In this document: in pieces, positions 11 through 63,853 of the stretch
Numbering within the stretch: position 1 is the first letter of the stretch
How the letters are laid out: every line of letters begins with the position of its first letter
From: Candidatus Pacearchaeota archaeon
GTDB lineage: Archaea; Nanobdellota; Nanobdellia; Pacearchaeales; GW2011-AR1
Reading direction: 5' to 3'
NCBI GenBank assembly: GCA_017609205.1
Contig: JAFCEL010000001.1
Span: 439,224 to 503,223, forward strand
Length of the DNA stretch: 64,000 bases
Made by a program: the position numbers and the translations under genes
The notes under the pieces: generated by a model
What the model was told of the DNA's origin: nothing
The model's database searches: none
Seen by the model: only the letters and a program-made list of their open reading frames with translations

Positions 11-811
11 TTAGTCTATTTCTTCTACCCACCATTCCAATTCAGGGATTTCTTTATTGATTTCTTTTGCTTTGCAATATCCTTTTGCTAGCAAATAAAA
101 AATCAATCCCAGGCTTTTTTCACTTTTATTATTCCCAATTATCACACAATCAGCTCCTTTTGAAAAATTATTTGTGTCACATATCATTAGAACTTTTTTG
201 TGAACTTTAAGGGTATCGTTTAGTGCATTTTTGTCAATCCAAGAGTCTGTTATAATTGTTAATTCATTCTCGAAGAAATCAGGAAGTTGGATATTTGTTA
301 GGATTCCTGCAGGGTATTTCTTCAAAAAGACCCGTATTCCTGTTAATTCTCCAAATTTCCTTGCTGCTTTCCATCCTGCTTGTCTTTTACAGACTAAGAT
401 GACATCTTCGGGATTAAATTTGGATAAGAATTCAATACCTTCTTTTAATTTTTCATCAATTAAGTTAGTGTTGAATATTGCAAGTCCATCTGCTCTACGT
501 CGGTAAACAAAAGGTCTCATGTCAGGTGTAACAACTTTTGTCCCAAGATAGATTCCTGCCTTGACATATTCATCAAGGGGAAGAAGCATGTCAGTTTTCT
601 TTTTTGCTTTAACTTTTTCCTTTAATTCTTCTGTTTTTGTCTCCTCAACTTTTTCTTTTAATTTAGCAACCTTCTCTAAAATCTTTTTTTTCTTTTCTTC
701 TATTTCTTTAATCTTTTTCTCATCAGTTGATTCTGACTCAGCTTCTTTACTCAGCTTTTCATCTATTTGCTCGTTTTTCTCTTCGGTAGTTTCTTTTTTC
801 TTTTTTGGCAT
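11..811 (-). CDS. rpsB: 30S ribosomal protein S2 (uS2) with ~75-aa Lys/Glu-rich N-terminal extension
   Basis: Core matches archaeal S2 (LLPLDEYVKAGIYLG...ICDTNN...IIGNNKS). The N-terminal KE-rich low-complexity region is free of stops. An alternative internal start is at the Met near 589. Confidence 0.85.
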   Translation of the reverse strand: MPKKKKETTEEKNEQIDEKLSKEAESESTDEKKIKEIEEKKKKILEKVAKLKEKVEETKTEELKEKVKAKKKTDMLLPLDEYVKAGIYLGTKVVTPDMRPFVYRRRADGLAIFNTNLIDEKLKEGIEFLSKFNPEDVILVCKRQAGWKAARKFGELTGIRVFLKKYPAGILTNIQLPDFFENELTIITDSWIDKNALNDTLKVHKKVLMICDTNNFSKGADCVIIGNNKSEKSLGLIFYLLAKGYCKAKEINKEIPELEWWVEEID

Positions 812-39656: not shown

Positions 39657-39914
39657 CGCCCCGACCGAGATTCGAACTCGGGTCACCGCCTGTCTCTAAC
39701 TGAAAAGAGTGGTTGCGTTGAGACGCTTAGACTTCCTCTCTCATCGAGATTTCATCACCTCTCTTTTTTTTCTTGAGAGTTATATGAAAAGAAGATTTTC
39801 AATTCATCTCAAGACTTATTTGCATTGAATAGGAATTCTTTTGAATGTCCTATTCAAGATTATCTTGTTGCGATTTTGAGAGGGCGGCATTCTTGGCCTC
39901 TGAACTATCGGGGC
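39657..39914 (-). tRNA. tRNA-Glu (anticodon CTC) with ~185-nt intron (39692..39876) at the canonical 37/38 position
   Basis: The 5' exon gccccgatagttcagaggccaagaatgccgccctctca and the 3' exon aggcggtgacccgagttcgaatctcggtcggggcg are near-identical to the intact tRNA-Glu(TTC) at 63462. The anticodon stem pairs ccgcc/ggcgg. Confidence 0.65.
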
Positions 39915-40020
39915 TGAATATGAGGTGATCTATTATTATTTGAATCTGAAGTAGATGAGATTCTTTAAGTGAACCATCTACTAAAGAAATCTACTCAAAA
40001 TTATTTATAAATTTAACTTA

Positions 40021-40281
40021 TCAAATCAAGAAAACTTTGTCATTGGGTCTAACTTTCTCAGGAACTTTTATTCCTATGTGGTCTCCTGCCTTTGCTTTTT
40101 TGACAGGTTTTCTTTCTATTTGTATTTCATTGACATCAACTTCAAAGTCAGTTGTATGTCCTTTTATTCTCACCCTATCACCTACACTAAGTTCGTCTGA
40201 AAGCTTTATTGCAGCCACACCCACATGACTAAAGTAGCTGGAAACAACTCCAATCTGTTTCCCGGGTATTTTTTCTTCCAT
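40021..40281 (-). CDS. EF-Tu domain-2-like beta-barrel small protein
   Basis: 86-aa ORF read as an EF-Tu domain-2-like fold. It is embedded between tRNA genes. Confidence 0.45.
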   Translation of the reverse strand: MEEKIPGKQIGVVSSYFSHVGVAAIKLSDELSVGDRVRIKGHTTDFEVDVNEIQIERKPVKKAKAGDHIGIKVPEKVRPNDKVFLI

Positions 40282-40320: not shown

Positions 40321-40393
40321 TAGCCTCGCCAGGATTCGAACCTGGGTCGCCGGAGCCAGAATCCGACATACTTGACCGCTGTACTACGAGGCT
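40321..40393 (-). tRNA. tRNA-Gln (anticodon CTG)
   Basis: Hand-folded: acceptor agcctcg/cgaggct with A1-U72 and discriminator A (archaeal Gln-like), anticodon loop ttCTGgc, T-loop ttcgaat. Confidence 0.8.
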
Positions 40394-41306: not shown

Positions 41307-41412
41307 GCCTCAGTAGCTCAGTGGTAGAGTATCACCTTGGTAAATCTTGATGTCTTAGATTGTTCAAGATTCAAAAAGGTGGGGGTCCCGAGTTCAAATC
41401 TCGGCTGAGGCT
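41307..41412 (+). tRNA. tRNA-Thr (anticodon GGT) with 34-nt intron (41343..41376)
   Basis: Acceptor gcctcag/ctgaggc and anticodon stem tcacc/ggtgg. The intron after position 37 contains an inverted repeat (aatcttga...tcaagatt). T-loop ttcaaat. Confidence 0.75.
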
Positions 41413-63461: not shown

Positions 63462-63561
63462 GCCCCGATAGTTCAGAGGCCAAGAATGCTGCCCTTTCAG
63501 GAACTTGTTTTCAACTCTTCGGAGAAAGGCAGTGACCCGAGTTCGAATCTCGGTCGGGGCG
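63462..63561 (+). tRNA. tRNA-Glu (anticodon TTC) with 27-nt intron (63500..63526)
   Basis: Acceptor gccccga/tcggggc and anticodon stem ctgcc/ggcag. The intron follows position 37. T-loop ttcgaat. Confidence 0.75.
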
Positions 63562-63735: not shown

Positions 63736-63853
63736 GAGCCTGTAGCTCAGCCTGGTTAGAGCACCAGTCTTATACGACGGTAGTTCATTAGAGCTATTGC
63801 TTATTCCTGTCTAGGAAAGCTGGGGGTCCGCGGTTCAAATCCGCGCAGGCTCA
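63736..63853 (+). tRNA. tRNA-Ile (anticodon TAT) with ~43-nt intron (63775..63817)
   Basis: Acceptor gagcctg/caggctc, D-stem gctc/gagc and anticodon stem ccagt/gctgg. The loop reads ctTATa plus intron. T-arm cgcgg-ttcaaat-ccgcg. Confidence 0.55.

Follow-up and report, generated by a model that had tools for sequence, protein, structure and literature searches.

The 64,000-nt window (the whole stretch of DNA that was analysed) carries on its minus strand a tRNA-Glu(CUC) gene that is interrupted by a long intron. The gene and its exons are laid out as follows.

39657..39914, minus strand: tRNA-Glu(CUC) gene including its intron, a 258-nt precursor body with CCA not encoded (ARAGORN -i and direct reading)
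39877..39914, minus strand: 5′ exon, 38 nt, tRNA positions 1–37, last base A37 (cloverleaf of the spliced RNA)
39878..39880, minus strand: anticodon CUC (positions 34–36)
39657..39691, minus strand: 3′ exon, 35 nt, tRNA positions 38–73 (ARAGORN with introns allowed, exon comparison)
39931..39940, minus strand: putative promoter, an A/T-rich TATA-like box AATAATAATA, 17–26 nt upstream of the mature 5′ end, proposed from its sequence only

With introns allowed, ARAGORN reports tRNA-Glu c[39657,39914] (ctc) i(39,185), which is exactly the gene, with its intron of about 185 nt, that the first-pass annotation had read from the letters and had proposed to check with this program. The intron-permitting run is needed for detection, as the gene is missed both by ARAGORN in default mode and by the Rfam tRNA model at its gathering threshold. 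ARAGORN folds the spliced 73-mer into the normal cloverleaf of a tRNA-Glu(ctc), its anticodon loop properly formed. The two exons follow each other on the same strand with 185 nt between them, which is not the arrangement of a split (trans-spliced) tRNA gene.

A paralogous gene for the other glutamate isoacceptor lies elsewhere in the window and served as comparator.

63462..63561, plus strand: tRNA-Glu(UUC) (matched by the Rfam tRNA model at 53.3 bits, the anticodon loop holding a 29-nt insertion)
63500..63526, plus strand: 27-nt intron of tRNA-Glu(UUC), at the same 37/38 site

The CUC exons had been described as an almost exact match to this paralogue outside the anticodon arm, and after splicing the two tRNAs are indeed identical at 70 of 73 positions, differing in the wobble base 34 and in one compensatory anticodon-stem pair, 29:41. 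The paralogue itself had been called intact, which is incorrect given its own 27-nt intron. Within a genome the CUC and UUC 3′ exons are near-identical, and the 10 nt immediately upstream of the CUC gene (CTCATATTCA) are the same as those upstream of the UUC gene. The 5′ exon of the CUC gene is identical to that of many DPANN tRNA-Glu(CUC) genes, and because its matches are confined to Woesearchaeota, Pacearchaeota and Nanoarchaeota MAGs, the host is a DPANN archaeon of the Woesearchaeales/Pacearchaeales type, in agreement with the lineage suggested at first reading.

The intron and the two strands that could define its splice sites are located as follows.

39692..39876, minus strand: intron, 185 nt, at the canonical 37/38 site (ARAGORN with introns allowed, exon comparison)
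39879..39882, minus strand: C32–U35, 5′ strand of the central 4-bp helix of the bulge-helix-bulge (BHB), pairing with AGAG at 39697..39694
39694..39697, minus strand: AGAG, 3′ strand of the BHB central helix, intron n-5..n-2, followed by the bulge A-C|A38

The ARAGORN call i(39,185), in which exon 1 ends at A37, bears out the earlier placement of the insertion at the canonical 37/38 site, though the A that flanks the intron on either side permits an equivalent 38/39 placement. C32–U35 and AGAG form four Watson–Crick pairs between two 3-nt bulges, C36 A37|A and A C|A38, and the outer helix of this BHB is the anticodon stem. Failure of the junctions to form such a motif had been named as grounds for discarding the gene; helix and bulges can both form, and the gene stands. 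Folding the precursor under the BHB constraint gives -57.3 kcal/mol against -59.3 kcal/mol for the minimum free energy (MFE) structure, a difference of only 2 kcal/mol. The unconstrained MFE fold shifts the central helix by one register because CUCUC and GAGAG are repetitive. In the window the inner helix h′ is weak, with three pairs (A-U, A-U, U-G) that open into a multibranch loop.

Comparison with relatives, which had also been suggested at the outset, shows that the arrangement recurs. The same exon-intron organization with a 4/4-pair central BHB helix is found in 114 of 115 distinct related pre-tRNAs, a degree of conservation far beyond chance. Among complete genes, 21 of 22 for tRNA-Glu(CUC) carry an intron (41–179 nt), as do 11 of 32 for tRNA-Glu(UUC). 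The related introns are between 41 and 229 nt long (median 114), and the reported range for archaeal tRNA introns is 11–129 nt with a median of 12–25 nt (PMC4090602). No ORF is present in the 185-nt insert. The locus is thus a real tRNA-Glu(CUC) gene with a BHB-capable intron at 37/38. We infer that its precursor is spliced, and that the excised intron may circularize and be stable.

The first-pass annotation had suspected a structured RNA in the intron. This expectation holds, though the RNA that is conserved lies in the last third of the intron, on its 3′ side, which had not been singled out.

39705..39769, minus strand: Y-shaped domain (Y-domain), a 65-nt three-way junction with P1 AAGAGA/CUCUUU, P2 GGU/ACC and arms A and B (covariance model R1, covariation)
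39730..39756, minus strand: arm A, with P3 (GAU/GUC), a purine-rich internal loop, a UCUC/GAGA stem and the pentaloop GAUGA (apex 39749..39737)
39715..39726, minus strand: arm B, a GCG/CGC stem with hexaloop UCUCAA, the same as tRNA positions 33–38 (stem covariation)

In general form the Y-domain consists of a closing helix, an 11-bp arm capped by G-N-N-G-A and a 3–4-bp arm with a UCUNAA loop. Model R1 scores the copy in the window at 80.4 bits (E 3e-22), the sole significant match there at E<=0.1. The MFE fold of the isolated domain coincides with the comparative structure, and is only modestly more stable than that of shuffled sequences (z = -1.9). Introns down to 68 nt consist of the Y-domain alone; overall, 7 to 147 nt separate the domain from the 5′ splice site and 18 to 107 nt from the 3′ splice site.

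The helices are also supported by covariation. In an alignment of 87 sequences, 89.7% of cells are paired, compared with about 46% when the partners are slid, and double changes occur in 12 of 19 pairs; none of 500 shuffles reached the observed values. Mutual information peaks only at the predicted pairs, and a search of the same signal for loop-loop or other tertiary covariation returned the predicted helices alone. The search pattern behind the large metagenome set prescribed GGTGA, some of arm A, TCTR and the loop of arm B (TCTMAA), leaving the arm B stem unspecified; invariance at the fixed positions is partly by construction, and the unbiased support is that of 21 exon-anchored genome introns. 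Although the pattern permitted all four combinations at the closing pair of arm A, the 105 sequences have C-G there 82 times and U-A 23 times, and never a mismatch; the loop consensus of this arm is G-N-N-G-A. The arm B stem covaries freely (GCA/UGC 82, GCG/CGC 17, ACA/UGU 2, GUG/CAC 1, GUA/UAC 1). Its loop is UCUCAA in 87 and UCUAAA in 18 of the 105 pattern-selected sequences, these being the sole forms that the pattern allowed, while the exon-anchored introns, whose loop was not preselected, also show UCUUAA, UCUUA and UCUU, with variation centred on the equivalent of tRNA position 36. In deep variants (L004, L010, L029, L036, L056) every helix has been rewritten, and both loops and the 11-nt arm length are kept.

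The Y-domain is found in the same intron of more than 100 related archaea. When genomes and metagenomes of Woesearchaeota, Pacearchaeota and Nanoarchaeota were searched with R1, one copy was found per tRNA-Glu(CUC) intron and no copy elsewhere in the 440 kb and 537 kb (about 1 Mb) covered; viral contigs likewise gave no matches. In a motif scan that did not depend on the exons, all 109 recognizable 5′ exons among the at least 120 matches listed were CUC, and the 15–54-nt introns of the UUC paralogues are without the domain. Taken together, the comparisons indicate that the Y-domain is under purifying selection and specific to tRNA-Glu(CUC) introns. It is dispensable, since two relatives (L008, L032) have lost the domain and a third (L040) the whole intron. 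In one locus (L139), possibly an assembly chimera, a Y-domain and 3′ exon are present with no 5′ exon within 532 nt. An 86-aa ORF resembling EF-Tu domain 2 was seen upstream, near the tRNA-Glu(CUC) gene; a link between this ORF and the intron or domain was dismissed, as it also adjoins CUC genes that are intronless or lack the domain. A search of the intron against Rfam 15 at E<=10 gave best scores of 11–17 bits against gathering thresholds of 38–110 (E >= 1.7), all to unrelated families, and that of a minimal-intron relative gave the tRNA match only. Full-text literature searches found no description of the Y-domain.

The 5′ part of the intron is different in character, being occupied by two hairpins.

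39825..39858, minus strand: hairpin 1, a perfect stem of 10–11 bp with a 13-nt loop, CTTGAATAGGA/TCCTATTCAA (MFE folds)
39772..39813, minus strand: hairpin 2, a CUUGAGA/UCUCAAG stem plus an inner stem (MFE folds)

These correspond to the two perfect inverted repeats to which the first reading of the DNA had drawn attention. Both are present and both form hairpins in the MFE structure, but they belong to the part of the intron that is not conserved. Hairpin 1 has no second copy in the window or in 177 related loci, and hairpin 2 is common only to the closest relative, L157 (84% identity over intron positions 62–184). We considered a pairing of the arm B loop with UUGAGA of hairpin 2 and rejected it, the complement being found in only 4 of 105 introns and not conserved. 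The 5′ 110 nt of the intron are a fast-evolving, lineage-specific segment. An origin of this segment from a repeat or mobile element was not upheld, as no further copies were found in the window, the 177 loci or viral contigs.

The same evidence bears on whether the whole insert could be the relic of an insertion, or of a mobile or integrated element, that has left a pseudogene or an unspliced locus. Archaeal integrating viruses do use tRNA-Glu genes as att sites (PMC4090602), and some features of the intron are of the kind that an att duplication might leave, in that arm B repeats UCUCAA of the anticodon loop and the 3′ strand of P1 resembles CCCUCUC; the tails of some relatives also hold tandem copies of the 3′ BHB strand. 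We nevertheless judge a disrupted gene to be very improbable. Both exons are undamaged and have co-evolved with the UUC paralogue, and 114 of 115 relatives retain the BHB. The insert has no ORF, occurs once in the window and once in every locus, and was not found in viral contigs. The helices of the Y-domain moreover show compensatory substitutions, which argues for selection on the RNA.

A second possibility is that the intron encodes a box C/D sRNA, as in tRNA-Trp, with GUGAUGA acting as box C and the RNA guiding 2′-O-methylation of tRNA. The motif pointed out in the first-pass annotation is present, as GGUGAUGA, the tRNA-Trp intron provides a precedent (PMC4090602), and GA-rich stretches of the intron are complementary to the anticodon loop. 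The motif is not a conserved box, however. Of 115 related introns only 8 have RUGAUGA and 15 have CUGA, and in none does a box C precede a box D at least 25 nt downstream; in the window, GGUGAUGA supplies the 5′ strands of two Y-domain helices. The GA of GGUGAY forms Watson–Crick G-C and A-U pairs at the base of P3 and not the sheared pairs of a K-turn; the neighbouring P3 pairs covary (U-G, U-A, C-G), and deep variants rewrite P3 as GGUUU/AAACC or GAGGUU/AACCUC. Where a C/D guide takes about 9–12 nt, only the 6-mers UGAGAG and GAGAGG complement the anticodon loop, and these lie inside the helices of the Y-domain itself and are broken in CUU/AAG variants with no compensating change in the tRNA. 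As no snoRNA or sRNA family of Rfam was hit at a meaningful score either, the C/D reading is effectively refuted.

Other known classes and motifs fared similarly. For an H/ACA sRNA, no ACA/ANA follows P1 or P3 and there is no tandem G.A, the internal loop of the Y-domain varying from 2x2 to 5x5 and often closing into pairs; C/D sRNA, H/ACA sRNA, K-turn and K-loop were all rejected, given the box statistics and the Watson–Crick covariation. A hammerhead-like CGAUGAG...GAAGUC was set aside because its GAUGA belongs to a hairpin loop instead of a junction strand. A mini-ORF, AUG AGA GAG GAA GUC UAA, behind the Shine-Dalgarno (SD)-like GAGGUGAU is not conserved in relatives, where the loop variants GGUGA, GACGA and GAGGA abolish its AUG and the stop is changed to UAC or UAU. 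Mimicry of an SD sequence by GAGGUGAUC, a perfect complement of the 16S rRNA 3′ end, was likewise rejected, as it is limited to one subclade and replaced in deeper variants.

The resemblance of arm B to its host tRNA raises the question of whether the arm serves as an anticodon-loop mimic that recruits, titrates or decoys a protein reading the Glu anticodon loop, the candidates being a non-discriminating GluRS, an enzyme that modifies position 34 and an anticodon nuclease. Host tRNA positions 33–38 are repeated exactly by the loop, both in the window and in most relatives; in the exon-anchored introns its variation centres on the equivalent of position 36, and the Y-domain accompanies only the C34 isoacceptor. 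This similarity was noticed post hoc, and the geometry differs, with a 6-nt loop on a 3–4-bp stem as opposed to the 7-nt loop on 5 bp of a tRNA; the loop variants UCUAAA, UCUUA and UCUU also exist. As an explanation in its own right we hold mimicry to be improbable.

More weight has to be given to a role in cis only, in which the Y-domain is a folding scaffold that merely lets a long intron of low-complexity, CU/GA-rich sequence fold so as to keep the anticodon loop in the BHB register that the endonuclease needs, and has neither a specific partner nor a role after excision. Where the intron is minimal, P1 runs straight on from the BHB as its inner helix h′, and the CUCUC anticodon loop can slip register, so that a clamp would help. 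The domain is also dispensable where introns are short or absent (L008, L032, L040). GNRA-like loops are often kept purely for folding stability. A scaffold is less easily reconciled with the remaining members. Most of them have 20–150 nt of unrelated hairpins between the Y-domain and one or both splice sites, across which the domain cannot impose a fixed BHB geometry; the UUC paralogues manage with introns of 15–54 nt and no Y-domain; and a UCUNAA loop and an exact 11-nt arm held constant while helices are rewritten exceed what folding stability needs. We regard a purely structural role in cis as possible, if on the whole doubtful.

The reading that we prefer, with a probability of roughly 0.55, is a functional tRNA-Glu(CUC) gene in whose spliced BHB intron an autonomous functional RNA module is nested. 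Autonomy is suggested by the combination of purifying selection, specificity to CUC introns and tolerance of variable insertions toward both splice sites. The precursor would be transcribed from its own promoter, and pairing of C32–U35 with AGAG near the 3′ end of the intron would create the 4-bp helix and its two 3-nt bulges. Following the known archaeal pathway, splicing endonuclease would cut both bulges and an RtcB-type ligase would join the exons and probably circularize the intron. In the module, the P1/P2 closing helix would stack on the arm of about 11 bp with its GNRA-like G-N-N-G-A pentaloop, the side hairpin presenting UCUNAA. Its most likely use would be as a docking platform on which a protein or RNA partner reads the two invariant loops, acting on the precursor or as the excised (circular) intron; any function in trans is inferred. 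A bolder version, put forward tentatively, is that the Y-domain stands for a new class of functional RNA hosted by the tRNA introns of archaea, and that splicing sets it free throughout the Woesearchaeales/Pacearchaeales as a stable RNA or RNP, probably a circle, with its loops as recognition sites. One possibility under this bolder version is that arm B engages an anticodon-reading enzyme by mimicry of the Glu anticodon loop.

Among known systems, tRNA-Trp introns contain a C/D sRNA and survive excision as stable circles (PMC4090602, PMC3326292). The tRNA-Trp(CCA) introns of Haloferax, Pyrococcus and Sulfolobus resemble the intron described here in having a BHB at the canonical position, a length far beyond the usual 12–25 nt, restriction to a single tRNA species, conservation over a large clade and a discrete structured RNA that is separable from the splice motif. 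They differ in that here the tRNA is Glu CUC and the host a DPANN archaeon, with no conserved C/D boxes, K-turn or guide complementarity and with a three-way junction that carries two invariant hairpin loops. The Y-domain therefore parallels the tRNA-Trp C/D sRNA but is not homologous to it. In Nanoarchaeum equitans, tRNA-Glu is split into two 5′ halves (CUC and UUC) and one shared 3′ half, joined at 37/38. The pair of tRNAs, the phylum-level lineage and the break point are the same as here, a helix of the intervening sequence adjoins a BHB that is cut by the endonuclease (as we suppose for our intron), and the near-identical CUC and UUC 3′ exons give the same result as the shared half. Unlike in N. 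equitans, the halves are contiguous and separated by a 185-nt intron, splicing would be in cis, and a conserved Y-shaped domain takes the place of a simple GC-rich duplex. With ordinary archaeal hBHBh′ introns the intron shares the 37/38 site, the 4-bp central helix, the two 3-nt bulges and the pairing of anticodon and intron, but at 185 nt, and up to 229 nt in related introns, it exceeds their 11–129 nt (PMC4090602). It also departs from them in its h′, which in the window amounts to merely three weak pairs leading into a multibranch loop. The tricRNAs of metazoans are tRNA introns released as stable circles by a BHB-type endonuclease and RtcB ligase. They too are structured tRNA introns, with a circular fate that we would expect here as well, but they are eukaryotic and share no sequence or structure similarity with the Y-domain.

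The tRNA introns of archaea are as a rule taken for short spacers that have no function; the one accepted exception, to our knowledge, is the C/D guide RNA of tRNA-Trp. The Y-domain would add a different structured RNA, linked to a single isoacceptor, tRNA-Glu(CUC), throughout a vast and little understood radiation of archaea. The intron site at 37/38 and the tRNA concerned both match the split tRNA of N. equitans, and such genes would offer concrete intermediates for an origin of split genes from introns, as has been hypothesized. Introns of 100–230 nt exceed the reported 11–129 nt and are missed by default tRNA finders, which may contribute to the 'missing' tRNAs in DPANN annotations. If our reading is correct, the Y-domain would join the tRNA-Trp C/D sRNA as just the second case of a functional RNA inside a tRNA intron of archaea, and since its structure and loop sequences show clear selection, tRNA introns may be a more general home of functional RNAs.

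Joined and folded, the flanks of the insertion in the tRNA-Glu(CUC) gene give a 73-nt RNA with a standard cloverleaf and the anticodon CUC. ARAGORN agrees once introns are allowed, calling tRNA-Glu c[39657,39914] (ctc) i(39,185), which is exactly the span proposed by the first-pass annotation; the gene was not detected in the default bacterial mode and was missed by the Rfam tRNA model at its gathering threshold. The window has a G+C content of 31-36% and its proteins include archaeal replication factor C subunits and both phenylalanyl-tRNA synthetase subunits. At least four of its six tRNA genes contain introns:

39914..39657, minus strand: tRNA-Glu(CUC) gene, read directly as GCCCCGAUAGUUCAGAGGCCAAGAAUGCCGCCCUCUCA, a 185-nt intron and AGGCGGUGACCCGAGUUCGAAUCUCGGUCGGGGCG
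63462..63561, plus strand: tRNA-Glu(UUC) paralogue, with its own 27-nt bulge-helix-bulge (BHB) intron at 37/38 (63500..63526)
63736-63853, plus strand: intron-containing tRNA that looks like tRNA-Ile(UAU) (Rfam 56.1 bits, 44-nt insertion, anticodon loop CU-UAU-A)
41307-41412, plus strand: intron-containing tRNA, Thr(GGU) by Rfam alignment (54.4 bits, 36-nt insertion)

ARAGORN -i miscalls the third of these as Ser(tga) and calls the fourth Leu(caa), so that for the latter its placing of the intron cannot be relied on. For AUA, most archaea use a modified CAU anticodon rather than UAU.

BHB folding had been suggested as a check on the tRNA-Glu(CUC) junctions, and they can form the motif. C32 U33 C34 U35 make four Watson-Crick pairs with A-G-A-G at intron positions n-5..n-2 (39697..39694), the flanking bulges are C36 A37|A and A C|A38, and the outer helix is the anticodon stem. 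At -57.3 kcal/mol, the BHB-constrained fold lies 2 kcal/mol above the unconstrained optimum (-59.3 kcal/mol), in which the same central helix is shifted by one register because CUCUC/GAGAG is repetitive. The inner BHB helix, h′, has only weak pairs in the window (A-U, A-U, U-G) and gives way to a multibranch loop. Among 115 distinct related precursors, 114 keep all four pairs of the central helix, and the final six intron bases are almost always RGAGNN. The precursor is predicted from these folds to be spliceable by its BHB motif, and in the features tested the intron fits the canonical BHB class of tRNA introns and stands out by its length alone: 185 nt in the window and up to 229 nt in relatives, compared with the 11-129 nt reported for archaea (PMC4090602).

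The comparison with orthologous tRNAs that the first-pass annotation had called for came from a 5′-exon scan of one genome per species, accepting either anticodon, which returned 57 loci labelled Woesearchaeota, Pacearchaeota, Nanoarchaeota or 'archaeon' MAGs, with L051 a Candidatus ainarchaeum. These labels place the host among DPANN archaea of the Woesearchaeales/Pacearchaeales type. In the same set, introns of 41-179 nt interrupt 21 of the 22 complete tRNA-Glu(CUC) genes, so that a long intron is the normal state of this gene in the lineage; of 32 complete tRNA-Glu(UUC) genes just 11 are interrupted, mostly by 15-54 nt. Within the window, the two spliced tRNAs differ at 3 of 73 positions, namely at wobble base 34 and in pair 29:41, where the change is compensatory, which bears out the near-exact exon match noted earlier. 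The UUC gene itself is not intact, as had been assumed: Rfam alignment shows a 29-nt anticodon-loop insertion, and the gene carries the 27-nt intron at 37/38. This intron ends in GGAGAA, as do most CUC introns, and the 10-nt 5′ leader CTCATATTCA and first two trailer bases (TA) are identical between the genes. Such sequence identity suggests that exons and flanks are in concerted evolution while the introns differ completely.

When the CUC introns were lined up, their 5′ parts proved unrelated and a segment of ~65 nt near the 3′ end, the Y-domain, recurred. In single-sequence folding, a dozen members and the window segment taken by itself converge on one three-way junction:

39769..39705, minus strand: Y-domain in the window, AAGAGAGGUGAUGAAAUCUCGAUGAGAGAGGAAGUCUAAGCGUCUCAACGCAACCACUCUU within the 65-nt model match
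closing helix, minus strand: P1 AAGAGA/CUCUUU and P2 GGU/ACC
arm A, minus strand: P3 GAU/GUC, an internal loop, a UCUC/GAGA stem and a GAUGA cap, the 5′ strand unbroken from the closing helix
arm B, minus strand: short side hairpin GCG-UCUCAA-CGC

An additional 110 nt separate the 5′ splice site of the window intron from P1 and contain the two perfect inverted repeats (39858..39825 and 39813..39772) reported previously, which are real and form hairpins in the predicted fold. No second copy of the 110 nt was found in the window or in any locus examined, and hairpin 2 is common only to the nearest relative, L157 (183-nt intron). The hairpins are therefore fast-evolving filler, and the conserved part of the intron is the segment containing GUGAUGA.

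Covariation supports the fold. In an 87-sequence alignment, 89.7% of cells are paired, compared with ~46% when partners are slid; double substitutions occur at 12 of 19 pairs, and none of 500 shuffles reaches the observed values. Mutual information peaks at predicted pairs only. Among the metagenome matches listed, the arm A closing pair is C-G in 82 and U-A in 23 and nothing else, under a search pattern that permitted all four Y/R combinations. The arm B stem, left unspecified in the pattern, is always complementary or wobble in these matches (GCA/UGC 82, GCG/CGC 17, ACA/UGU 2, GUG/CAC 1, GUA/UAC 1, two wobble). Both results are free of retrieval bias.

The Y-domain is also tightly confined. 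An exon-independent scan of a metagenome collection, using a degenerate motif taken from the domain only, gave at least 120 matches. All 120 listed lie in tRNA introns (116 with a recognisable 3′ exon under a relaxed expression, 4 ending at contig ends), and among them the anticodon is CUC in 109 of 109 recognisable 5′ exons. With a covariance model built from the 87-sequence alignment (R1), the window scores 80.4 bits (E 3e-22), 14 genome-derived CUC introns have one match each (E <= 1.4e-8) and two more match weakly; there is no other significant match across 440 kb, and 100 metagenome loci (537 kb) give exactly 100 matches. A repeat, or the mobile-element relic raised as a possibility by the first-pass annotation, is rejected, as the domain has no other copies in these loci and none of 2.9 million viral contigs carries its motif.

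In deep variants (L004, L010/11, L029, L036, L046, L056) the sequence of P1, P2 and P3 is wholly replaced (e.g. GGUUU/AAACC, GAGGUU/AACCUC). Kept in these are the three-way topology, the arm A length of 10-11 nt per strand, a G-N-N-G-A pentaloop (GAUGA, GGUGA, GACGA, GUUGA), GNRA-like with one extra base, and the arm B loop UCU(C/A/U)A(A). The internal loop in arm A does not constitute a motif: it is GAAA/AGGAA in the window and closes into pairs in others. A more speculative reading of arm B is as an anticodon-loop mimic, built on the match of its loop to tRNA positions 33-38, in which position 36 is free. The spacing between domain and splice site is 7-147 nt on the 5′ side and 18-107 nt on the 3′ side. 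The shortest introns (68 nt, e.g. L113 and L098) are approximately the domain alone, with P1 doubling as the inner BHB helix. This last arrangement, and domain loss in genes with a short intron or none, favour the main rival explanation, in which the domain would serve in cis only, clamping the fold of a slippery CU/GA-rich BHB; this rival explains the loop conservation and tolerated insertions less well. One tRNA-Glu(CUC) gene (L040) is intronless, and two others (L008, L032) have a 41-44-nt intron resembling the UUC introns of L014 and L033 and devoid of the domain; the Y-domain was therefore lost or never gained in some Woesearchaeota.

Several known RNA classes were considered and rejected. 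The GUGAUGA motif reported at first pass is present inside the conserved domain but does not act as box C: 8 of 115 introns contain RUGAUGA and 15 of 115 contain CUGA, never in C-then-D order, and the GA of GGUGAY forms G-C and A-U pairs rather than sheared ones, with neighbouring pairs covarying. As for a guide function, complementarity to the tRNA is limited to hexamers within helices of the domain itself, which CUU/AAG variants have lost. An H/ACA RNA is excluded by the lack of an ACA box and pocket, a hammerhead by GAUGA being a loop, and a coding sequence by the 5-codon ORF of the window not being conserved. In one large subclade, the P1/P2/P3 5′ strand (window 39752-39760, minus strand, and relatives) reads GAGGUGAU(C), perfectly complementary to the 3′ end of 16S rRNA (GAUCACCUC); the strand it pairs with within the domain, GGUC...ACCUCU, resembles an anti-Shine-Dalgarno sequence, split by arm B. 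The resemblance is probably coincidental, since deeper variants are without it.

A neighbouring gene was also weighed as a partner:

40021-40281, minus strand: 86-aa ORF, EF-Tu-domain-2-like (weak Pfam match, E 1.3e-4; PDB EF-Tu, E 0.64)

It is embedded in a tRNA cluster, between tRNA-Gln(CUG) (40393..40321) and tRNA-Glu(CUC), and in 54 of 92 loci, domain-less ones among them, a homologue of 55-81% identity directly precedes tRNA-Glu(CUC). The product is predicted to be a highly conserved small beta-barrel protein. As a dedicated Y-domain partner it was discarded, being syntenic with CUC genes with or without the domain.

Some introns are further elaborated. The tails of four (L073, L161, L164, L169) hold 2-3 tandem units of a small hairpin plus (U)UAGAGAA/GGAGAA between domain and 3′ splice site, each unit a duplicated 3′ BHB strand, suggesting growth by duplication of the 3′ splice-site region. 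Two loci (L115, L174) combine the Y-domain intron at 37/38 with a second ~35-nt insertion in the D-loop/D-stem (GGCCAA|AUUCUAUAUUGGAGUAAAAUCUAAGUAGAAGGCUA|UGGAU), presumably a non-canonical second intron. A 1205-nt metagenome contig (L139, Ga0...) has a complete Y-domain (619-683, minus strand) and a tRNA-Glu 3′ exon, with no 5′ exon in the 532 nt upstream, a stretch of different, more G+C-rich composition; it may represent the 3′ half of a split tRNA-Glu gene, led by the domain, or else an assembly chimera. The Y-domain intron shares its tRNA and its 37/38 site with the split tRNA-Glu of Nanoarchaeum equitans, which is made from two 5′ halves and a common 3′ half (PMC4090602). The window CUC and UUC genes keep near-identical exons and an identical 5′ leader.

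No Rfam 15 family matches the Y-domain and a full-text literature search found no description of it; the domain appears undescribed so far, whereas the gene and its splicing type are ordinary. Archaeal tRNA splicing starts with endonuclease cuts in both BHB bulges, after which an RtcB-type ligase seals the exons together and closes the intron into a circle; most circles are short-lived, though the tRNA-Trp intron with its nested C/D sRNA is a stable functional circle (PMC4090602, PMC3326292). The Y-domain resembles the latter as an intron-nested RNA but is not a C/D RNA by any membership test. The tRNA-Glu(CUC) intron would be processed likewise, with both bulges cut, exons ligated and intron circularised, and the Y-domain may act on the precursor or as the excised intron. 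With moderate confidence, we interpret the Y-domain as an autonomous module in which both invariant loops would be recognition sites for a protein or RNA partner, because loop sequence and arm length outlast the rewriting of every helix, the domain tolerates varying distances to both splice sites, and it is strictly tied to the C34 isoacceptor.
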